Below the pieces are notes generated by a model, which saw only the letters and a list, made by a program, of their open reading frames with translations, searched no databases and had not been told where the DNA came from. A stretch of DNA of 5,495 bases from a virus (lineage: Duplodnaviria; Heunggongvirae; Uroviricota; Caudoviricetes): positions 1-5,495 of the IMG/VR virus record IMGVR_UViG_2657245015_000016; one strand, written 5' to 3'. The translations under genes were made by a program, and so were the position numbers. This document shows, piece by piece, positions 1 through 5,495 of the stretch (within the stretch, counting starts at the first letter, position 1; each line of letters starts with the position of its first letter).

Positions 1-1
1 C

Positions 2-106
2 GAACGTCTGGTACAGGCACTGGGCCTGGTGGATATCCGGGTGCCGGACCATCTGATAGTCGGTGGCAACCAGGTTTTCTCCTTTGCCGAACATGGTCTG
101 CTTTAA
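2..106 (+). CDS. 3' end of a RadC-like (JAB/MPN, UPF0758) protein gene; partial, 5' end lies outside the window
   Basis: Frame is open from the window edge to TAA at 104-106. The translated tail [34 protein letters not shown] resembles the conserved C-terminus of RadC-like proteins of CP4-type islands (YeeS/YfjY/YkfG family). This is recalled similarity, not a search result. Confidence 0.55.
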
Positions 107-168
107 CCCGTCACAACCACATCACACCTGTTTTCACTTTTATCTTCTGTCTTCAGAGGTATCACATC

Positions 169-390
169 ATGAGAATCATCACCCGTGGTGAAGCCATGCG
201 TATTCACCAACAGCATCCTGCATCCCGTCTTTTTCCGTTCTGTACCGGTAAGTATCGCTGGCACGGCAGTGCTGAAGCGTATACTGGTCGTGAAGTGCAG
301 GATATTCCCGGCGTTCTTGCCGTGTTTGCAGAACGCCGTAAGGACAGTTTTGGCCCGTATGTCCGGCTGATGAGTGTCACCCTGAACTGA
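169..390 (+). CDS. YeeT/YpjJ/YkfH-family small protein (DUF987), the gene that normally sits between radC-like and cbeA in CP4-type islands
   Basis: 73-aa ORF with GAGG about 10 nt upstream of the ATG at 169. The sequence MRIITRGEAMRIHQQHP...FPFCTGKYRWHGSAEAYTGREVQDIPGVLAVFAERRKDSFGPYVRLMSVTLN matches my recollection of E. coli YeeT-family proteins. Its position, radC-like then this ORF then cbeA-like, matches the CP4-44/CP4-57 gene order. Confidence 0.6.
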   Translation: MRIITRGEAMRIHQQHPASRLFPFCTGKYRWHGSAEAYTGREVQDIPGVLAVFAERRKDSFGPYVRLMSVTLN

Positions 391-552
391 TGTTCCGTCA
401 CCCGGGAAACGAGTACGACCAGATGACCTCAGACGCCGCTGTGGATGAGGCCATTCTCATCAATGCATACATCTTCACCGAAACCGGTCAGCGCGCCGGC
501 TGACCTGTCATCGTTAAACCATTCTTAACCACTTTTCAGAGAGGATTTTATC

Positions 553-1173
553 GTGTCAGACAAACTCTCCGGGATAACTCATCCCGATGACAATCACGAC
601 CGCCCCTGGTGGGGGCTTCCCTGCACAGTGAGGCCCTGTTTTGGCGCTCGTCTGGTGCAAGAGGGTAACCGCCTGCATTACCTTGCCGACCGCGCCGGTA
701 TCAGAGGCCGCTTCAGCGACGCAGATGCATACCATCTGGACCAGGCCTTTCCGCTGCTGATGAAACAACTGGAACTCATGCTCACCAGCGGTGAACTGAA
801 TCCCCGATATCAGCATACCGTCACGCTGTATGCAAAAGGGCTGACCTGCGAAGCCGACACCCTCGGCAAATGTGGCGGAAAGGGTGAGGTTTCCACCGCC
901 TGTAAGGATTGCCGTGGGCGTGGTGTCGCCATTCATCGTGAAGAGTCGGTAAAACGTGGTATGCCTGTTATCAGAGACTGCCAGCGTTGTGGTGGTCGTG
1001 GCTGTGAAAGACTACCATCAACGGAGGCATTTAATGCCATATGCAAAGTGACGAGTGCTATCACGCTTGATACGTGGAAAAAATCAGTGAAACGCTTTTA
1101 CGATACGTTGGTGGTTCGGTTTGACATTGAAGAGGCATGGGCGGAGCGGCAGTTAAAGAGGGTAACGCGATAG
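553..1173 (+). CDS. Chimeric ORF: N-terminal ~105 aa of a CbeA/YeeU/YfjZ-family antitoxin fused in frame to the C-terminal ~100 aa of a lambda-Q-family late antiterminator; probably a junction fusion or pseudogene
   Basis: GTG start at 553 with AGAGGA 8 nt upstream. Residues 1-~105 (MSDKLSGITHPDDNHDRPWWGLPCTVRPCFGARLVQEGNRLHYLADRAGIRG...LTSGELNPRYQHTVTLYAKGLTCEADTLG) carry the hallmark GARLVQEGNRLHYLADRA motif of CbeA/YeeU antitoxins. Residues ~110-206 (ACKDCRGRGVAI...IRDCQRCGGRG...LDTWKKSVKRFYDTLVVRFDIEEAWAERQLKRVTR) align with the lambda Q C-terminus (CRDCHGTGRAV...ECGRCKGVGY...QPTWSRTVKPLYDALVVQCHKEESIADNILNAVTR), including the CxxC...CxxC zinc site. A lambda-like pR' lies immediately downstream. 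Confidence 0.8.
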   Translation: MSDKLSGITHPDDNHDRPWWGLPCTVRPCFGARLVQEGNRLHYLADRAGIRGRFSDADAYHLDQAFPLLMKQLELMLTSGELNPRYQHTVTLYAKGLTCEADTLGKCGGKGEVSTACKDCRGRGVAIHREESVKRGMPVIRDCQRCGGRGCERLPSTEAFNAICKVTSAITLDTWKKSVKRFYDTLVVRFDIEEAWAERQLKRVTR

Positions 1174-1178
1174 TGTTG

Positions 1179-1218
1179 TTGATTTTTCCCGAATCTGTGG
1201 TAAATTTGCTCTAACGAT
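1179..1218 (+). promoter_or_regulatory. pR'-like late promoter with a sigma70-dependent promoter-proximal pause element (the expected Q-utilisation region)
   Basis: TTGATT (1179-1184), a 16-nt spacer, then TAAATT (1201-1206), followed by TGCTCTAACGATGGG. This closely resembles lambda pR' (GGTAAATTTGACTCAACGATGGG) and sits directly after the Q-like stop codon, as in lambdoid phages. Confidence 0.55.
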
Positions 1219-1255
1219 GGGCGTTTTATGCCTGACGTTAGAAGATTTTTTACAC

Positions 1256-1278
1256 CCCGCCGCCTGGCGGGTTTTTTT
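1256..1278 (+). terminator. tR'-like intrinsic terminator ending a short pR' transcript (6S-RNA-like)
   Basis: Stem CCCGCC (1256-1261) pairs with GGCGGG (1266-1271) around loop GCCT, followed by seven T (1272-1278). It lies about 65 nt downstream of the predicted pR' start. Confidence 0.7.
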
Positions 1279-1400
1279 ATGACTGAAATCGCGTCAGTAC
1301 AGTAAACGCGCTGGTGGCGGTGAATACCTGTCTTTCAGCTTGCTGGCTTTTTCGACAAGAGTTATTGGTGTGTCACGTTAACCGGAAAAGGGAAAAAGAC

Positions 1401-1598
1401 ATGCTAAAACAGCAGGATATGACAGAAACCGCCAGAGTAGTGTTTAATGAATTAAGCGTTACCGAACCGGCGACAGTCGGGGAGATTGCACAGAATACTT
1501 ACCTTTCACGCGAACGCTGCCAGTTAATACTGACCCAGCTGGTTATGGCGGGTCTGGCAGACTATCAGTTCGGTTGTTACAGACGCCTTCCGCAGTGA
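1401..1598 (+). CDS. Small (66 aa) winged-helix/DeoR-type HTH protein, hypothetical
   Basis: ATG at 1401 is preceded by an AAGGGAAAAAGAC purine-rich stretch. The segment TVGEIAQNTYLSRERCQLILTQLVMAGL has the pattern of a DeoR-like helix-turn-helix. The stop codon falls in the loop of a terminator hairpin. The longer track ORF starting at 1314 is not preferred because it begins in the tR'-proximal region without a ribosome-binding site. Confidence 0.4.
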   Translation: MLKQQDMTETARVVFNELSVTEPATVGEIAQNTYLSRERCQLILTQLVMAGLADYQFGCYRRLPQ

Positions 1599-1608
1599 AG
1601 GCTTTTTT
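1585..1608 (+). terminator. Intrinsic terminator after the small HTH ORF
   Basis: GCCTTC (1585-1590) pairs with GAAGGC (1597-1602) around loop CGCAGT, followed by TTTTTT (1603-1608). Confidence 0.5.
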
Positions 1609-1748
1609 ATTTGTGGTAAATGGGCGGCTGGTGGGTGTTAGGGGCACCCACCAGCCATCTGCTCATGCGTTGGGTTCACAAGCAAACCTCAGGCCCACTG
1701 CTTTGCGCAAAAGCAGAATGAGCCTATCAGAGACAGGCTTAATGATCC

Positions 1749-2798
1749 ATGCTTAATACTGTAAAAATATCCAGTTGTGAGTTAATCAACGCCGACTGCC
1801 TGGAATTTATCCGGTCGTTACCCGAAAATTCTGTTGACCTGATAGTCACGGACCCGCCGTACTTTAAAGTGAAGCCTGAGGGCTGGGATAACCAGTGGAA
1901 GGGCGACGATGATTACCTGAAGTGGCTGGACCAGTGTCTGGCGCAGTTCTGGCGGGTGCTGAAACCTGCCGGAAGTCTTTACCTGTTCTGTGGTCATCGC
2001 CTGGCATCTGATATCGAAATCATGATGCGTGAACGCTTCAGTGTGCTGAACCATATTATCTGGGCGAAGCCGTCCGGACGCTGGAACGGATGCAACAAGG
2101 AAAGCCTGCGGGCGTATTTCCCCGCCACAGAGCGCATTCTGTTCGCGGAACATTATCAGGGGCCGTATCGTCCGAAAGATGCCGGGTATGCGGCGAAGGG
2201 CAGTGCACTGAAACAGCATGTGATGGCCCCGCTGATTTCTTACTTTCGTGATGCGCGCGCGGCCCTGGGGATAACGGCAAAACAGATTGCAGATGCCACA
2301 GGAAAGAAAAACATGGTGTCGCACTGGTTTGGTACCAGTCAGTGGCAGTTACCGAACGAGGGTGATTACAACAAATTGCAGGCGTTGTTTGCGCGTGTTG
2401 CGGCAGAAAAACATCAGCGCGGGGAACTGGAAAAGCCACACCACCAGCTGGTCAGCACATACAGTGAGCTGAACCGGCAGTATATGGAACTGCTGAGTGA
2501 ATATAAAAATTTGCGGAGGTATTTCGGTGTGACGGTGCAGGTGCCGTACACCGATGTGTGGACGTATAAACCGGTGCAGTACTATCCAGGGAAACATCCG
2601 TGCGAAAAACCGGCAGAAATGTTGCAGCAGATAATCAGCGCAAGTAGTCGTCCTGGTGAGCTGGTTGCGGATTTTTTCATGGGGTCGGGTTCAACGGTAA
2701 AAGCGGCGATGGCACTGGGTCGTCGTGCGATTGGTGTTGAGCTGGAGACCGGACGTTTTGAGCAGACAGTCAGGGAAGTTCAGGATTTAATCGTTTGA
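1749..2798 (+). CDS. Orphan DNA methyltransferase, amino-methyltransferase beta class (N6-adenine or N4-cytosine); motif IV DPPY precedes motif I FxGxG
   Basis: 349-aa ORF. LIVTDPPY lies near the N-terminus (catalytic motif IV) and DFFMGSGST near the C-terminus (AdoMet-binding motif I), with a presumed target-recognition region between them. No restriction endonuclease ORF is adjacent. In-frame TGA at 1743-1745 fixes the start at ATG 1749. Confidence 0.9.
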   Translation: MLNTVKISSCELINADCLEFIRSLPENSVDLIVTDPPYFKVKPEGWDNQWKGDDDYLKWLDQCLAQFWRVLKPAGSLYLFCGHRLASDIEIMMRERFSVLNHIIWAKPSGRWNGCNKESLRAYFPATERILFAEHYQGPYRPKDAGYAAKGSALKQHVMAPLISYFRDARAALGITAKQIADATGKKNMVSHWFGTSQWQLPNEGDYNKLQALFARVAAEKHQRGELEKPHHQLVSTYSELNRQYMELLSEYKNLRRYFGVTVQVPYTDVWTYKPVQYYPGKHPCEKPAEMLQQIISASSRPGELVADFFMGSGSTVKAAMALGRRAIGVELETGRFEQTVREVQDLIV

Positions 2799-2809
2799 AA
2801 CGGATGATA

Positions 2810-2838
2810 TTGAAGAATTAATTACGCGTCGTTATTAT
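2810..2838 (+). promoter_or_regulatory. Candidate sigma70 promoter of the tRNA cluster
   Basis: TTGAAG (2810-2815), a 17-nt spacer, then TATTAT (2833-2838). The predicted start is about 8-10 nt before the first tRNA 5' end at 2848. Confidence 0.5.
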
Positions 2839-2847
2839 GCGGCTCCC

Positions 2848-2923
2848 GGCCCTTTAGCTCAGTGGTGAGAGCGAGCGACTCATAATCGCCAGGTCGCTGG
2901 TTCAAATCCAGCAAGGGCCACCA
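2848..2923 (+). tRNA. ileZ: tRNA-Ile2 (anticodon CAU, lysidine-type, reads AUA); ileX/ileZ-like
   Basis: Hand-folded cloverleaf: acceptor GGCCCTT/AAGGGCC, D-stem GCTC/GAGC, anticodon loop CTCATAA, T-arm GCTGG-TTCAAAT-CCAGC, encoded CCA at 2921-2923. It is near-identical in pattern to E. coli ileX from memory. The CAU anticodon alone cannot exclude tRNA-Met. Confidence 0.85.
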
Positions 2924-2930
2924 TCACATA

Positions 2931-3007
2931 CCGCCATTAGCTCATCGGGATAGAGCGCCAGCCTTCGAAGCTGGCTGCGCGGGGTTCAAGTCCCCGATGG
3001 CGGTCCA
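2931..3007 (+). tRNA. argN: tRNA-Arg (anticodon UCG as read from the fold)
   Basis: Acceptor CCGCCAT/ATGGCGG (7 bp), D-stem GCTC/GAGC, anticodon stem CCAGC/GCTGG with loop CTTCGAA (U33, anticodon TCG, A37), T-arm CGGGG-TTCAAGT-CCCCG, encoded CCA at 3005-3007. It starts 8 nt after the preceding tRNA. Confidence 0.85.
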
Positions 3008-3020
3008 TTATCTGCATCAT

Positions 3021-3097
3021 GCGTTGTTAGCTCAGCCGGACAGAGCAATTGCCTTCTAAGCAATCGGTCACTGGTTCGAATCCAGTACAACGCGCCA
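3021..3097 (+). tRNA. argO: tRNA-Arg (anticodon UCU, reads AGA/AGG rare codons)
   Basis: Acceptor GCGTTGT/ACAACGC, D-stem GCTC/GAGC, anticodon stem ATTGC/GCAAT with loop CTTCTAA (anticodon TCT), T-arm ACTGG-TTCGAAT-CCAGT, discriminator G, CCA at 3095-3097. Confidence 0.88.
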
Positions 3098-3111
3098 CAC
3101 TTATTTTCCCT

Positions 3112-3138
3112 GGCTCGCTTTTGCGGGCCTTTTTTTTT
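3112..3138 (+). terminator. Intrinsic terminator of the tRNA operon
   Basis: GGCTCGC (3112-3118) pairs with GCGGGCC (3123-3129), with one G-U pair, around loop TTTT, followed by nine T (3130-3138). Confidence 0.75.
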
Positions 3139-3144
3139 AAATGT

Positions 3145-3359
3145 CTCACAATTCAGACGGTTGACTGTTGTCTGGTTTGCGGGGAGTTTGTTAAAAGAAA
3201 CTGGCATGGTGAATCCCCCTGTGCGGAGGGGCAATCAGCGAGTAGGTATATGGGATAATCGCGGATTCAGGTGCTGGTACTGAATTCACCGGGAGGCACC
3301 CGGCACCATGCAATGGCACATAGCGCCACTCTCCAGCCCCTCTCCGGAGGGGCTTTTCT
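3145..3359 (+). ncRNA. Candidate structured small RNA, copy A of a tandem paralog pair occupying the stx slot
   Basis: Starts at the conserved CTCACAATTCAG block just after the tRNA terminator. Perfectly conserved blocks are shared with copy B: TTTGTTAAAA, CATGGTGAATCCCCCTG, GCGGAGGGGC, CACCGGGAGGCACCCGGCACCATG. It ends in a terminator (7-bp stem GCCCCTC/GAGGGGC at 3336-3353, then TTTTCT). There is no conserved reading frame between copies. No convincing sigma70 promoter was found, so the 5' end is uncertain. Confidence 0.35.
3336..3359 (+). terminator. Intrinsic terminator closing repeat copy A
   Basis: GCCCCTC (3336-3342), loop TCCG, GAGGGGC (3347-3353), then TTTTCT. Confidence 0.6.
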
Positions 3360-3548
3360 GTGCCGGATACATCACAGTTTCTGGAACCTTAGGTACTACA
3401 GTATCAGTCAGGGTGCTATATTTTCAGATGTGATGAAAGCCTGTCAGCAGGCAGGGCGTATCGGAAATGACCCAGTAGAGAAAACGTTGACTCAGATACC
3501 GGTGCTGAGTTACCGGGAAACCGGCATCACATGACCGCTATCCTTCCA

Positions 3549-3575
3549 GGCCCATCCGCTCCGGTGGGCCTTTTT
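3549..3575 (+). terminator. Intrinsic terminator preceding repeat copy B
   Basis: GGCCCATC (3549-3556) pairs with CGGTGGGCC (3562-3570), including one G-U pair, around a 6-nt loop, followed by TTTTT (3571-3575). Confidence 0.6.
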
Positions 3576-3612
3576 ACTGCAGAAAACAGGTTCCCCGTTA
3601 AATGCTATGTTG

Positions 3613-3846
3613 CTCACAATTCAGTAAGTTGACAGTTGCCTGTCAGACTGGGCATTTGTTAAAAAAATTTCGCATGGTGAATCCCCCTGAGCGGAGGGGC
3701 GACTGGTGACGGTATAATCTCTGATTATCAAAACGAGAATGACGCGGGTTTAGTGGCACCGGGCTGAACTCACCGGGAGGCACCCGGCACCATGTGCATG
3801 ATGATACAGATACGCGGCTTTAGCCCCTCTCCGGAGGGGTTTTCTT
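3613..3846 (+). ncRNA. Candidate structured small RNA, copy B of the tandem paralog pair
   Basis: Same conserved block order as copy A, beginning CTCACAATTCAG at 3613 and ending with terminator CCCCTC/GAGGGG (3824-3839) plus TTTTCTT. The internal 5-bp hairpin CCCCT-N6-AGGGG and the CCGGG-AGGCA-CCCGG hairpin are preserved in both copies. Confidence 0.35.
3824..3846 (+). terminator. Intrinsic terminator closing repeat copy B
   Basis: CCCCTC (3824-3829), loop TCCG, GAGGGG (3834-3839), then TTTTCTT (3840-3846). Confidence 0.6.
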
Positions 3847-3852
3847 GTGGGC

Positions 3853-3880
3853 AAAAAAAGCCCGCGCTGGGAGACGCGGG
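3853..3880 (-). terminator. Candidate minus-strand (or bidirectional) intrinsic terminator
   Basis: On the plus strand, AAAAAAA is followed by GCCCGCG-CTGGGAGA-CGCGGGC (perfect 7-bp stem). Read on the minus strand this is a hairpin followed by a T-run. Confidence 0.35.
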
Positions 3881-3949
3881 CGGCAAGGAATAAACAATAA
3901 AACGTGAAGTAATATTTCAGCTGGCGAATAATACCCCATAGTAATCACT

Positions 3950-3972
3950 CTGCGCAACTGCGCGGTCTTTTT
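3950..3972 (+). terminator. Weak candidate intrinsic terminator upstream of the esterase gene
   Basis: CTGCGC (3950-3955) pairs with GCGCGG (3960-3965) around loop AACT, followed by TCTTTTT. Confidence 0.3.
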
Positions 3973-4074
3973 CGAATTGCGGGCTGTCGTCTCTCTTCTG
4001 CCATTGTCCTGTAACTTCCGGACTTCAGCCCGCTCCTTATTTTACTCACAATATTATCCCGGCCGGGAGGATTC

Positions 4075-5322
4075 ATGGCATTTAAACACTATGACGTGGT
4101 CAGGGCGGTATCGCCGTCAGACCTTGCGAAACGACTGACACAAAAACTGAAGGAGGGCTGGCAGCCGTTTGGTAGTCCGGTGGCCATAACCCCTTATACC
4201 CTGATGCAGGCGATTGCAGCAGAAGGTGATGTGGTGGTCAGTGGTGCAACTGAGCCGGATTGGTACTACGTCATCGTACTGGCCGGGCAGTCCAATGCCA
4301 TGGCTTACGGTGAAGGGCTTCCGCTGCCGGATTCATACGATGCGCCCCATCCGCGCATTAAGCAACTGGCCCGTCGTAACACAGTGACTCCCGGTGGTGA
4401 AGTATGCGTATTTAACGACATCATTCCTGCTGACCATTGTCTGCATGATGTTCAGGATATGAGTACGATTAACCATCCCCGGGCTGACCTGAGCAAAGGG
4501 CAGTACGGCTGTGTCGGACAGGGCTTACATATTGCCAAAAAACTGCTTCCGTATATCCCTAATAACGCGGGGATCCTGCTGGTACCATGCTGTCGTGGTG
4601 GTTCGGCATTCACCCAGGGCACGGAGGGGACATTCAGCGAGTCCACGGGGGCCAGTCAGGATTCGGCTCGCTGGGGAGTGGGTAAGCCGTTATATCAGGA
4701 TCTGCTTTTCCGCACGAAGGCAGCATTGCAGAAAAACCCGAAAAACGTTTTGCTGGCGATATGCTGGATGCAGGGGGAATTCGATATGACGAATGCCAGT
4801 TACGCCCAGCAGCCAGCAGCATTTCTTGCAATGGTACAGCAGTTCCGTGCTGACCTTGCCGGGCTGGCGGCGCAGTGTCACGGTGGAAGTCCGGCATCAG
4901 TCCCCTGGATTTGTGGCGACACGACATACGCGTGGAAACAAGAACACGGTACGCAATATGAAGTGGTATATGGTGCATATAAAGGTAAAGAATCCCAGCA
5001 GATTTATTTTGTTCCCTTTATGACCGATGGTAGCGGAGTTAATACACCGACAAACAACCCGTCAGAAGATCCTGATATTGCCGGGTCTGGTTATTACGGT
5101 TCGGCATCCCGAACGAACAAAAACTGGGTATCATCAAATCGCCCGACGCATTTCAGCTCATGGGCGCGTCGTGGCATTATTCCCGATCGTATGGCAACTG
5201 CTATTCTGAACGTAGCCGGTCGCACCTTAGCCTTCATTAGTGGTAAGGCACCGGAAATCAAACCCTCGCCCGGCGGCGACACTCCATCGGGGCCGTCTGA
5301 TGGCCAATCAGAAAGGCGATGA
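4075..5322 (+). CDS. nanS-p: NanS-p-like prophage sialate O-acetylesterase (N-terminal DUF1737-like region plus SGNH/SASA esterase domain with a GQSN motif); possibly C-terminally truncated
   Basis: 415-aa ORF with a strong GGGAGGA ribosome-binding site 4 nt before ATG 4075. The N-terminus MAFKHYDVVRAVSPSDLAKRLTQKLKEGWQPFGSPVAITPY matches my recollection of the DUF1737 start of the gene found downstream of stxAB in 933W-like phages. VIVLAGQSNAMAYGEG carries the GQSN catalytic-serine motif of NanS-type 9-O-acetyl esterases. Its position downstream of the ileZ-argN-argO tRNAs matches lambdoid late-region synteny. Confidence 0.75.
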   Translation: MAFKHYDVVRAVSPSDLAKRLTQKLKEGWQPFGSPVAITPYTLMQAIAAEGDVVVSGATEPDWYYVIVLAGQSNAMAYGEGLPLPDSYDAPHPRIKQLARRNTVTPGGEVCVFNDIIPADHCLHDVQDMSTINHPRADLSKGQYGCVGQGLHIAKKLLPYIPNNAGILLVPCCRGGSAFTQGTEGTFSESTGASQDSARWGVGKPLYQDLLFRTKAALQKNPKNVLLAICWMQGEFDMTNASYAQQPAAFLAMVQQFRADLAGLAAQCHGGSPASVPWICGDTTYAWKQEHGTQYEVVYGAYKGKESQQIYFVPFMTDGSGVNTPTNNPSEDPDIAGSGYYGSASRTNKNWVSSNRPTHFSSWARRGIIPDRMATAILNVAGRTLAFISGKAPEIKPSPGGDTPSGPSDGQSERR

Positions 5323-5385
5323 CACCCACGCCCTGGGCCAGCCAATACGCGGTCATGATAAATCCTTATCAGGTATGGAAAAGCA

Positions 5386-5418
5386 AACGGCGCTTCACAT
5401 TATGAAACGCCGTTTTTT
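5386..5418. terminator. Hairpin terminator, probably bidirectional, between convergent genes
   Basis: AACGGCG (5386-5392) pairs with CGCCGTT (5408-5414), with an inner TTCA/TGAA helix. It is flanked by an A-rich stretch upstream and TTTTTT downstream (5413-5418). Confidence 0.45.
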
Positions 5419-5495
5419 ATTAACAACTCATTTCGACTTTATAGCGTTACGCCGCTTTTGAAGATCGCCAGTTCGCGGAAGTCGTTACGCTCGTT

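Follow-up and report, generated by a model that had tools for sequence, protein, structure and literature searches.

The closest described system is the pR'/qut/tR' region of phage lambda, in which Q, bound between the -35 and -10 elements, loads at a sigma70 pause (PMC5001585; background in PMC7547250). The roles that an AACGAT-like repeat, a GGG and an AT-rich segment play in the pause at lambda pR' have also been described (PMC5001585). The leader made there, lambda 6S RNA, is a short non-coding RNA ended by an intrinsic terminator. Leaders of this kind can be more than by-products, as exemplified by StxS of the Stx1 and Stx2a phages Sp15 and Sp5, which carry a Q of the 144-aa clade. StxS is transcribed from a constitutive late promoter and halted at tR' in lysogeny, and this 258-nt RNA, cut by RNase E to 74 nt, is bound by Hfq and targets rpoS and stx1B. 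Another prophage-borne, multicopy RNA with an intrinsic terminator, HnrS of EHEC (EcOnc10-12), is 66 nt long, and its Sakai Sp10 locus, downstream of the Rz gene, is on the strand opposite the late genes; the RNA contains the mazF-complementary CCCAATCAGTACATT.

Here we analysed a stretch of 5,495 nt (hereafter the window; positions 1 to 5,495 of the IMG/VR virus record IMGVR_UViG_2657245015_000016), of which positions 1179-1278 are very probably the late-operon control module of a lambdoid prophage with a Q of the lambda family, specifically of the 273-aa subgroup represented by Sakai Sp6 and K-12 Qin. As such, the locus is an ordinary pR'-pause-tR' module, that is, a standard late-gene switch and not a new element; its Q subgroup is one whose pR' is not explicitly described in the literature that we searched.

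A mosaic window with a disrupted Q gene

The window is a mosaic that runs from a CP4-type island through the head of the late region of a lambdoid prophage into the chromosomal ygjV/uxaA region. Its main features, apart from the control module itself, are as follows.

1-867: CP4-type island part, 100% identical to CP4-type islands
553-1173, plus strand: in-frame fusion ORF of 206 aa, CbeA/YeeU antitoxin joined to the C-terminal part of Q
871-5303: prophage part, ~98% identical to lambdoid prophages, head of the late region
1401-1598: conserved 65-aa ORF, SfV orf47-like, between tR' and the tRNAs
1749-2798: DNA methyltransferase gene, between tR' and the tRNAs
2848-3097: tRNA trio with anticodons CAT, TCG and TCT, equivalent to ileZ-argN-argO of Stx phages
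3175-3365 and 3643-3852: two full copies of STnc100 (RF02076), 136 and 161 bits (gathering score 47)
3404-3577: degenerate third copy of STnc100, weak (30 bits)
3853-3941, minus strand: strong terminator (GCCCGCGTCTCCCAGCGCGGGC followed by T7) in convergent orientation to the second full copy of STnc100
4075-5322: SASA/NanS-p-like esterase gene, shortened relative to homologues of ~645 aa
from ~5300 on: chromosomal ygjV/uxaA region

The island part (1-867) holds the end of a JAB/RadC-like gene, a DUF987 gene and the yeeU/cbeA antitoxin gene, and the whole prophage remnant in the window amounts to only ~4.4 kb. At the left junction (867-871) there are a few bases of possible microhomology (A..TGTGG), and at the right junction (~5300-5304) the prophage breaks off inside the esterase gene and abuts ygjV/uxaA. 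A comparison with 5426 complete E. coli genomes and an E. albertii contig recovered neither junction, and the remnant could be either a real deletion remnant of an unsampled strain or an assembly chimera.

The left junction fuses two proteins in frame. In the 206-aa product, aa 18-108 match the CbeA/YeeU antitoxin (Pfam PF06154, 1.4e-46) and aa 111-198 match lambda-type Q antiterminators (Pfam PF03589, 1e-27), with the Q-derived DNA starting at ~871; no record of this exact CbeA-Q' fusion protein was found. The earlier note had described Q as disrupted, which our alignment of Sakai Sp6 Q, lambda Q and K-12 YdfT confirmed and specified: what is left (Q') is the last ~97-100 codons, i.e., the zinc-finger part equivalent to lambda Q ~113-207, fused to CbeA, while the N-terminal ~170 aa (two thirds of the protein, equivalent to lambda residues 1 to ~112) are gone. 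The assignment of the parent protein to the lambda Q family rests on the PF03589 scores of Sakai Sp6 Q (7.8e-49) and lambda Q (6e-58) and on matches of the 273-aa Q to the solved Q-lambda chains PDB 7UBM (1.1e-39) and 4MO1; relative to lambda Q, the 273-aa protein contains an insertion of ~66 residues, a zinc ribbon, in the alignment. We also observed that a cysteine in the zinc-finger motif of the window, lambda Q and K-12 YdfT (CKDCRGRG) is replaced by phenylalanine in Sakai Sp6 Q (349-1170 of the extracted locus; CKDFRGRG), and Sakai Sp6 Q may be defective in its own right.

Between the tRNAs and the esterase gene, the STnc100 copies take the place that stxAB has in Stx phages, and a repeated motif (CTCACAATTCAG...TTGAC..GTTG) lies upstream of the two full copies only. 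The placing of the minus-strand terminator at 3853-3941 recalls the 'convergent sRNAs' of Tree et al. 2014; an Rfam search of this segment returned no AgvB or AsxR match and only a 25-bit match to OmrA-B, which is at chance level.

Promoter, pause signal and terminator of the unit

The unit begins 6 bp past the stop codon of Q' (1171-1173) and consists of the following features, all of them on the plus strand.

1179-1184, plus strand: predicted pR' -35 element TTGATT, placed by its spacing to the -10 element and aligned with TTGACT of lambda
1185-1200, plus strand: 16-bp spacer with the block TTTCCCGAATCTGTG, putative Q-binding element
1201-1206, plus strand: pR' -10 element TAAATT, identical to that of lambda pR'
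1207-1212, plus strand: discriminator TGCTCT
1213-1221, plus strand: predicted start A1213 and sigma70-dependent pause signal, same as lambda +1 to +9
1213-1278, plus strand: predicted terminated late-leader RNA of about 64-67 nt (66 nt), from the predicted start and the terminator
1213-1239, plus strand: 5'-terminal hairpin, outer stem AACG/CGUU and inner stem GGGCGU/AUGCCU, in both the MFE and the centroid structure
1240-1255, plus strand: single-stranded linker AGAAGAUUUUUUACAC, 16 nt, A/G-rich and then U-rich, unpaired in the MFE structure
1256-1278, plus strand: tR' intrinsic terminator with a 6-bp all-GC stem, a 4-nt loop and a U7 tail

What the unit has in common with lambda pR'/qut/tR' is its place after Q, a Q of the PF03589 family, the -10 element TAAATT, AACGATGGG at +1 to +9 and the AT-rich run behind it. 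The near-identity to lambda that the earlier note had seen in the -10 region and initial transcribed sequence is real: GGTAAATTTGCTCTAACGATGGG and lambda GGTAAATTTGACTCAACGATGGG agree at 19 of 23 positions, with -10 and +1 to +9 identical and all 4 differences in the discriminator. The window contains the arrangement TAAATT-N6-AACGATGGG a single time, and none of 200 shuffles contains it, even with 2 mismatches allowed. Within the pause signal, a -10-like AACGAT (1213-1218, +1 to +6) is followed by a discriminator-like GGG (1219-1221, +7 to +9) and then directly by the AT-rich run CGTTTTAT. We predict a pause near +16/+17 (about 1228-1229), a position estimated from these elements; the T at +17 and G at +18, together with G at +8, would fit the elemental-pause pattern as described in the literature (PMC5001585).

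The two promoters differ in that lambda has a 17-bp spacer and TTGACT, whereas the unit has a 16-bp spacer, TTGATT and an extended -10 element, the spacer ending in TGG ('TGn', with TG at 1198-1199). Between -35 and -10, where the presumed Q-binding element lies, the sequence of lambda is unlike that of the window, in which the TTTCCCGAATCTGTG block is a putative Q-binding element by virtue of its corresponding position. A generic promoter scan of the window did not call pR', the consensus score being 8/12 against a cut-off of 9. An extended -10 TG makes up for a weak -35 element, and in pR' it likely offsets the low consensus score. As a side observation, TTGTGGTAAATGGGCGG at 1609-1624, just past a terminator at 1585-1602, repeats TGTGGTAAAT of the pR' -10 region; this sequence, which recurs in Stx2_EH1910, could be a further promoter-like site before the methyltransferase gene, or a coincidence.

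At the other end of the unit, the terminator stem pairs CCCGCC (1256-1261) with GGCGGG (1266-1271) and is followed by T7 (1272-1278); a terminator scan likewise lists the hairpin 1256-1271. A strong terminator had been claimed about 65 nt downstream of the start, much closer than in lambda, and both parts of this claim stand: the hairpin with its U7 ends 66 nt from the predicted start, while the lambda leader measures ~193 nt from start to terminator on NC_001416. Past +9, the lambda leader bears no likeness to the window RNA except for generic terminator sequence. For the 66-nt RNA, folding predicts two hairpins with a free energy of -21.9 kcal/mol (z = -2.64). We considered and rejected an attenuator-type alternative fold, the MFE and centroid structures being the same and no rival pairing involving the terminator arm being present. 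A leader peptide was rejected too: the 21 codons from the ATG at 1217 shift frame in the Sp6 variant and are cut short by a stop in type B, where only 2 codons are left, and termination would leave the RNA without a stop codon.

Put together, these elements suggest the following course of events. Sigma70 RNA polymerase would start at A1213 from the extended -10 promoter, sigma70 would re-bind the non-template AACGAT-GGG (+1 to +9), and the polymerase would scrunch and pause at ~+16/+17 in the AT-rich segment. The Q of an intact phage, bound to the TTTCCCGAATCTGTG block, would load at the paused complex; without Q, the polymerase would end at the GC-rich hairpin and U7 (1256-1278), and the product would be an RNA of ~66 nt made up of the 5'-terminal hairpin, the 16-nt open linker and the terminator hairpin. 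In the window, Q lacks its N-terminal two thirds and is fused to CbeA, and the switch would therefore be locked in the terminating state, with termination constitutive. The ~66-nt RNA is thus expected to be the sole pR' product in the window, with promoter activity and accumulation of the RNA predicted from the sequence. For the downstream 65-aa ORF, methyltransferase, tRNAs, STnc100 copies and esterase, transcription would have to come from promoters of their own or from leakage through the terminator.

Homologous units and what is conserved in them

Identical or near-identical units stand directly behind intact 273-aa Q genes in the Stx2a phage Stx2_EH1910 and in Sakai Sp6, Xuzhou21, Evi and mEp460_ev081, and among such copies are some with 100% identity to the 121-bp unit of the window. 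With these 121 bp as the query, the unit was detected in 2505 of 5426 complete E. coli genomes (~46%). In the O91:H21 strain FWSEC0008, it lies immediately upstream of ileZ-argN-argO-stx2A, i.e., in the position of the Stx late promoter; overall, homologous units precede tRNAs, stx2, esterase and holin. A pattern scan that covered one genome per species also recovered the unit from E. albertii, Kluyvera, Yokenella, Leclercia, Enterobacter, Pseudescherichia, Silvania and one enterobacterial MAG. In all, the unit occurs, with its architecture kept, in eight enterobacterial genera besides that of E. coli.

Diverged copies lie behind Q in SfV and, downstream of ydfT/quuQ, in K-12 Qin. The late leaders of SfV, K-12 Qin, mEp237, PHB10 and the Klebsiella phage ST16-OXA48phi5.1 are true homologues of that of the window, sharing AACGATGGG at +1, the 5' hairpin and a terminator 54-68 nt from the start. 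They differ from it in the linker, the terminator sequence and the -35 element, and the TTTCCCGAATCTGTG block is found in the mEp237, PHB10 and ST16-OXA48phi5.1 units but not in SfV and Qin. Public records of these five annotate only a terminator, and the literature searched holds no characterisation of their pR' or RNA. The Q and leader of EPEC E2348/69 PP2 are of another type. A separate observation concerns a 30-nt mid-leader piece (TTTGTGCCTGACGTTAAAAGATTTTTTACA), which is 93% identical in phage 2851 (extracted positions 1501-1530), phage 1717 and other Stx2c/Stx2a phages. This piece lacks the promoter and the terminator, sits ~200 bp downstream of a late promoter/terminator of a different Q type and just upstream of tRNAs, and looks like a recombination scar between late-region modules.

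All 20 family members that we folded have a 5'-terminal hairpin from +1 followed by a terminator, with a total length of 54-68 nt. The short distance from pR' to tR' is accordingly not unusual but the rule in this Q subgroup, and the late leader of Sakai Sp10 is short as well. Across genera, the -10 element, AAYGATGGG at +1 to +9 and a downstream (U)CGUU complementary to the 5' AACG(A) are kept, as is a block between -35 and -10, TTTCC(C/G)GAAT(C/T)(T/C)GTG. This TTTCCCGAATCTGTG block is invariant or nearly so in E. coli, the Klebsiella phage, Kluyvera, Yokenella, Leclercia, Enterobacter, Pseudescherichia and Silvania, and the units in which it is kept vary in their -35 element and RNA body.

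The RNA body evolves differently from part to part. Terminator sequences differ wholesale, with compensatory changes at four stem pairs, whereas the 5' hairpin shows only one-sided, pair-preserving changes (G-C to G-U, C-G to U-G), since the pause signal holds its 5' arm constant. Compared with shuffles of the sequence from +10 onward, the 5' hairpin is only modestly better than chance (p = 0.013-0.24), and it is therefore suggestive but not proven. The lambda leader can similarly pair AACGA (+1 to +5) with UCGUU (+19 to +23), with weak statistical support (p = 0.02-0.14), and such a 5'-terminal hairpin may be a common trait of Q-lambda-type leaders. The linker is the least constant part: it exists in five variants in E. 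coli (AGAAGATTTTTTACA, AAAAGA..., AGAAGGATTTTT..., AGAGGAATTTTT... and AGAAGAGTTTCT...), is replaced in types B and C, and measures 4-5 nt in the Kluyvera/Enterobacter type.

Function of the leader RNA and alternative readings

Experimental support for the unit comes only from its K-12 homologue. The Qin copy spans MG1655 1642356-1642422 (minus strand), with a predicted start at ~1642422 (minus strand), which would give an RNA of ~67 nt. Adams et al. 2021 (supplementary file 1) list an 'orphan' Term-seq 3' end at MG1655 1642356 (minus strand), and the sequence flanking this end is the Qin copy of the terminator. The stop codon of ydfT lies 133 nt before this 3' end, and read-through from ydfT, as opposed to pR', is a conceivable source of it; RNET-seq pause tables have no entry at the K-12 site.

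Could the leader be a regulator in its own right? The earlier note drew a parallel to the prematurely terminated pR' RNAs of Stx phages. StxS is indeed a genuine precedent for this, being, as would be expected of the window RNA, a by-product of the control of antitermination by Q, and it demonstrates that a terminated pR' RNA can serve as an Hfq-bound regulator. The parallel does not extend to the molecule itself, in that StxS shares no sequence with the window RNA and belongs to another Q clade, and the linker is unconserved. A blastn-short comparison with StxS and with the body of lambda 6S found only terminator-like 12-mers, and homology to either was rejected; StxS differs in Q type and length as well.

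Other known RNAs were likewise rejected as identities. HnrS has another locus and strand, its mazF-/hha-complementary seed is absent from the window RNA, and it has no similarity to 1213-1278; the equal length of 66 nt is a coincidence. The published probe sequences of PasA-D (EPEC) are absent from the window on both strands with up to 5 substitutions allowed. The leader is absent from the EcOnc, Pas, StxS and HnrS sets, and searches of Rfam returned no leader family with a score near gathering for the whole window at E<=1 or for 1150-1330 at E<=10. At pR' of Sakai Sp6, whose predicted leader spans NC_002695.2 1554209-1554273 (plus strand), Tree et al. list no Hfq-CRAC peak, in a data set that excludes sites within 100 nt of a feature; StxS2 was originally missed because of this exclusion.

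A second life of the 66-nt leader as a trans-acting, Hfq-dependent sRNA analogous to StxS, pairing through the linker (1240-1255), is accordingly speculative and in our view unlikely, and it is given that much weight because StxS shows the principle. In its general build the RNA does resemble an Hfq client: its GC-rich terminator ends in U7, a run of U6 stands before the terminator hairpin, the linker contains AGAAGA (A-R-N repeats), and the 5' end is protected. The unit is also very widespread, and its K-12 homologue has a strong 3' end in vivo. However, the U7, U6 and AGAAGA features would suit a plain terminator equally, and the linker varies even within E. coli and therefore offers no conserved seed in favour of an sRNA role. 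Furthermore, a search for linker targets in the window gave a best duplex of -14.8 kcal/mol versus a mean of -18.1 for shuffled seeds, with none above background, and the cis function (pause signal and terminator) already accounts for every conserved feature. In the broader form of this idea, which we likewise consider unlikely, the leader would be plentiful and stable and would have its own function, either as a lineage-variable Hfq-associated regulator or by way of a functional 5' hairpin. In the latter case the hairpin, which would sequester the pause-signal RNA from +1, would be a working part of Q-lambda-type late leaders, for example stabilising the late mRNA or aiding the loading of Q.

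Less probable still is that the module is a silent fossil whose promoter is inactive or silenced, so that no leader RNA is made. Its pR' has a weak consensus score (8/12), a 16-bp spacer and an imperfect -35 element, and its surroundings are a heavily deleted mosaic that is truncated at both ends and in which Q is destroyed. Moreover, AT-rich horizontally acquired DNA is often silenced by H-NS. Against this, the extended -10 TG compensates for the weak -35, lambda pR' is constitutive, and the cryptic Qin copy in K-12 still gives a prominent 3' end; in addition, the unit has not decayed, all of its 121 bp being identical to those of copies that follow an intact Q. It is highly improbable that the hairpin at 1256-1278 mainly terminates upstream (early/Q) transcription and that the -10/AACGAT match is inherited without a present role: the SfV and Ayreon records do annotate the homologous site only as a 'terminator', and the K-12 3' end is compatible with a 3' end of ydfT, but Q-type antiterminators require just such a promoter-proximal site, and across genera the flanks, the -35 element and the terminator change around a conserved -10 element, AACGATGGG and inter-element block, which argues for selection on the promoter and pause part.

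The reading of the locus as a late-gene control module of the 273-aa Q subgroup defines the pR'/pause/tR' unit of a very common group of Q proteins, one of whose units would directly drive stx2 in some STEC. It also offers a candidate source for the otherwise unexplained 'orphan' Term-seq 3' end in K-12 Qin, and it supplies a conserved candidate Q-binding block.
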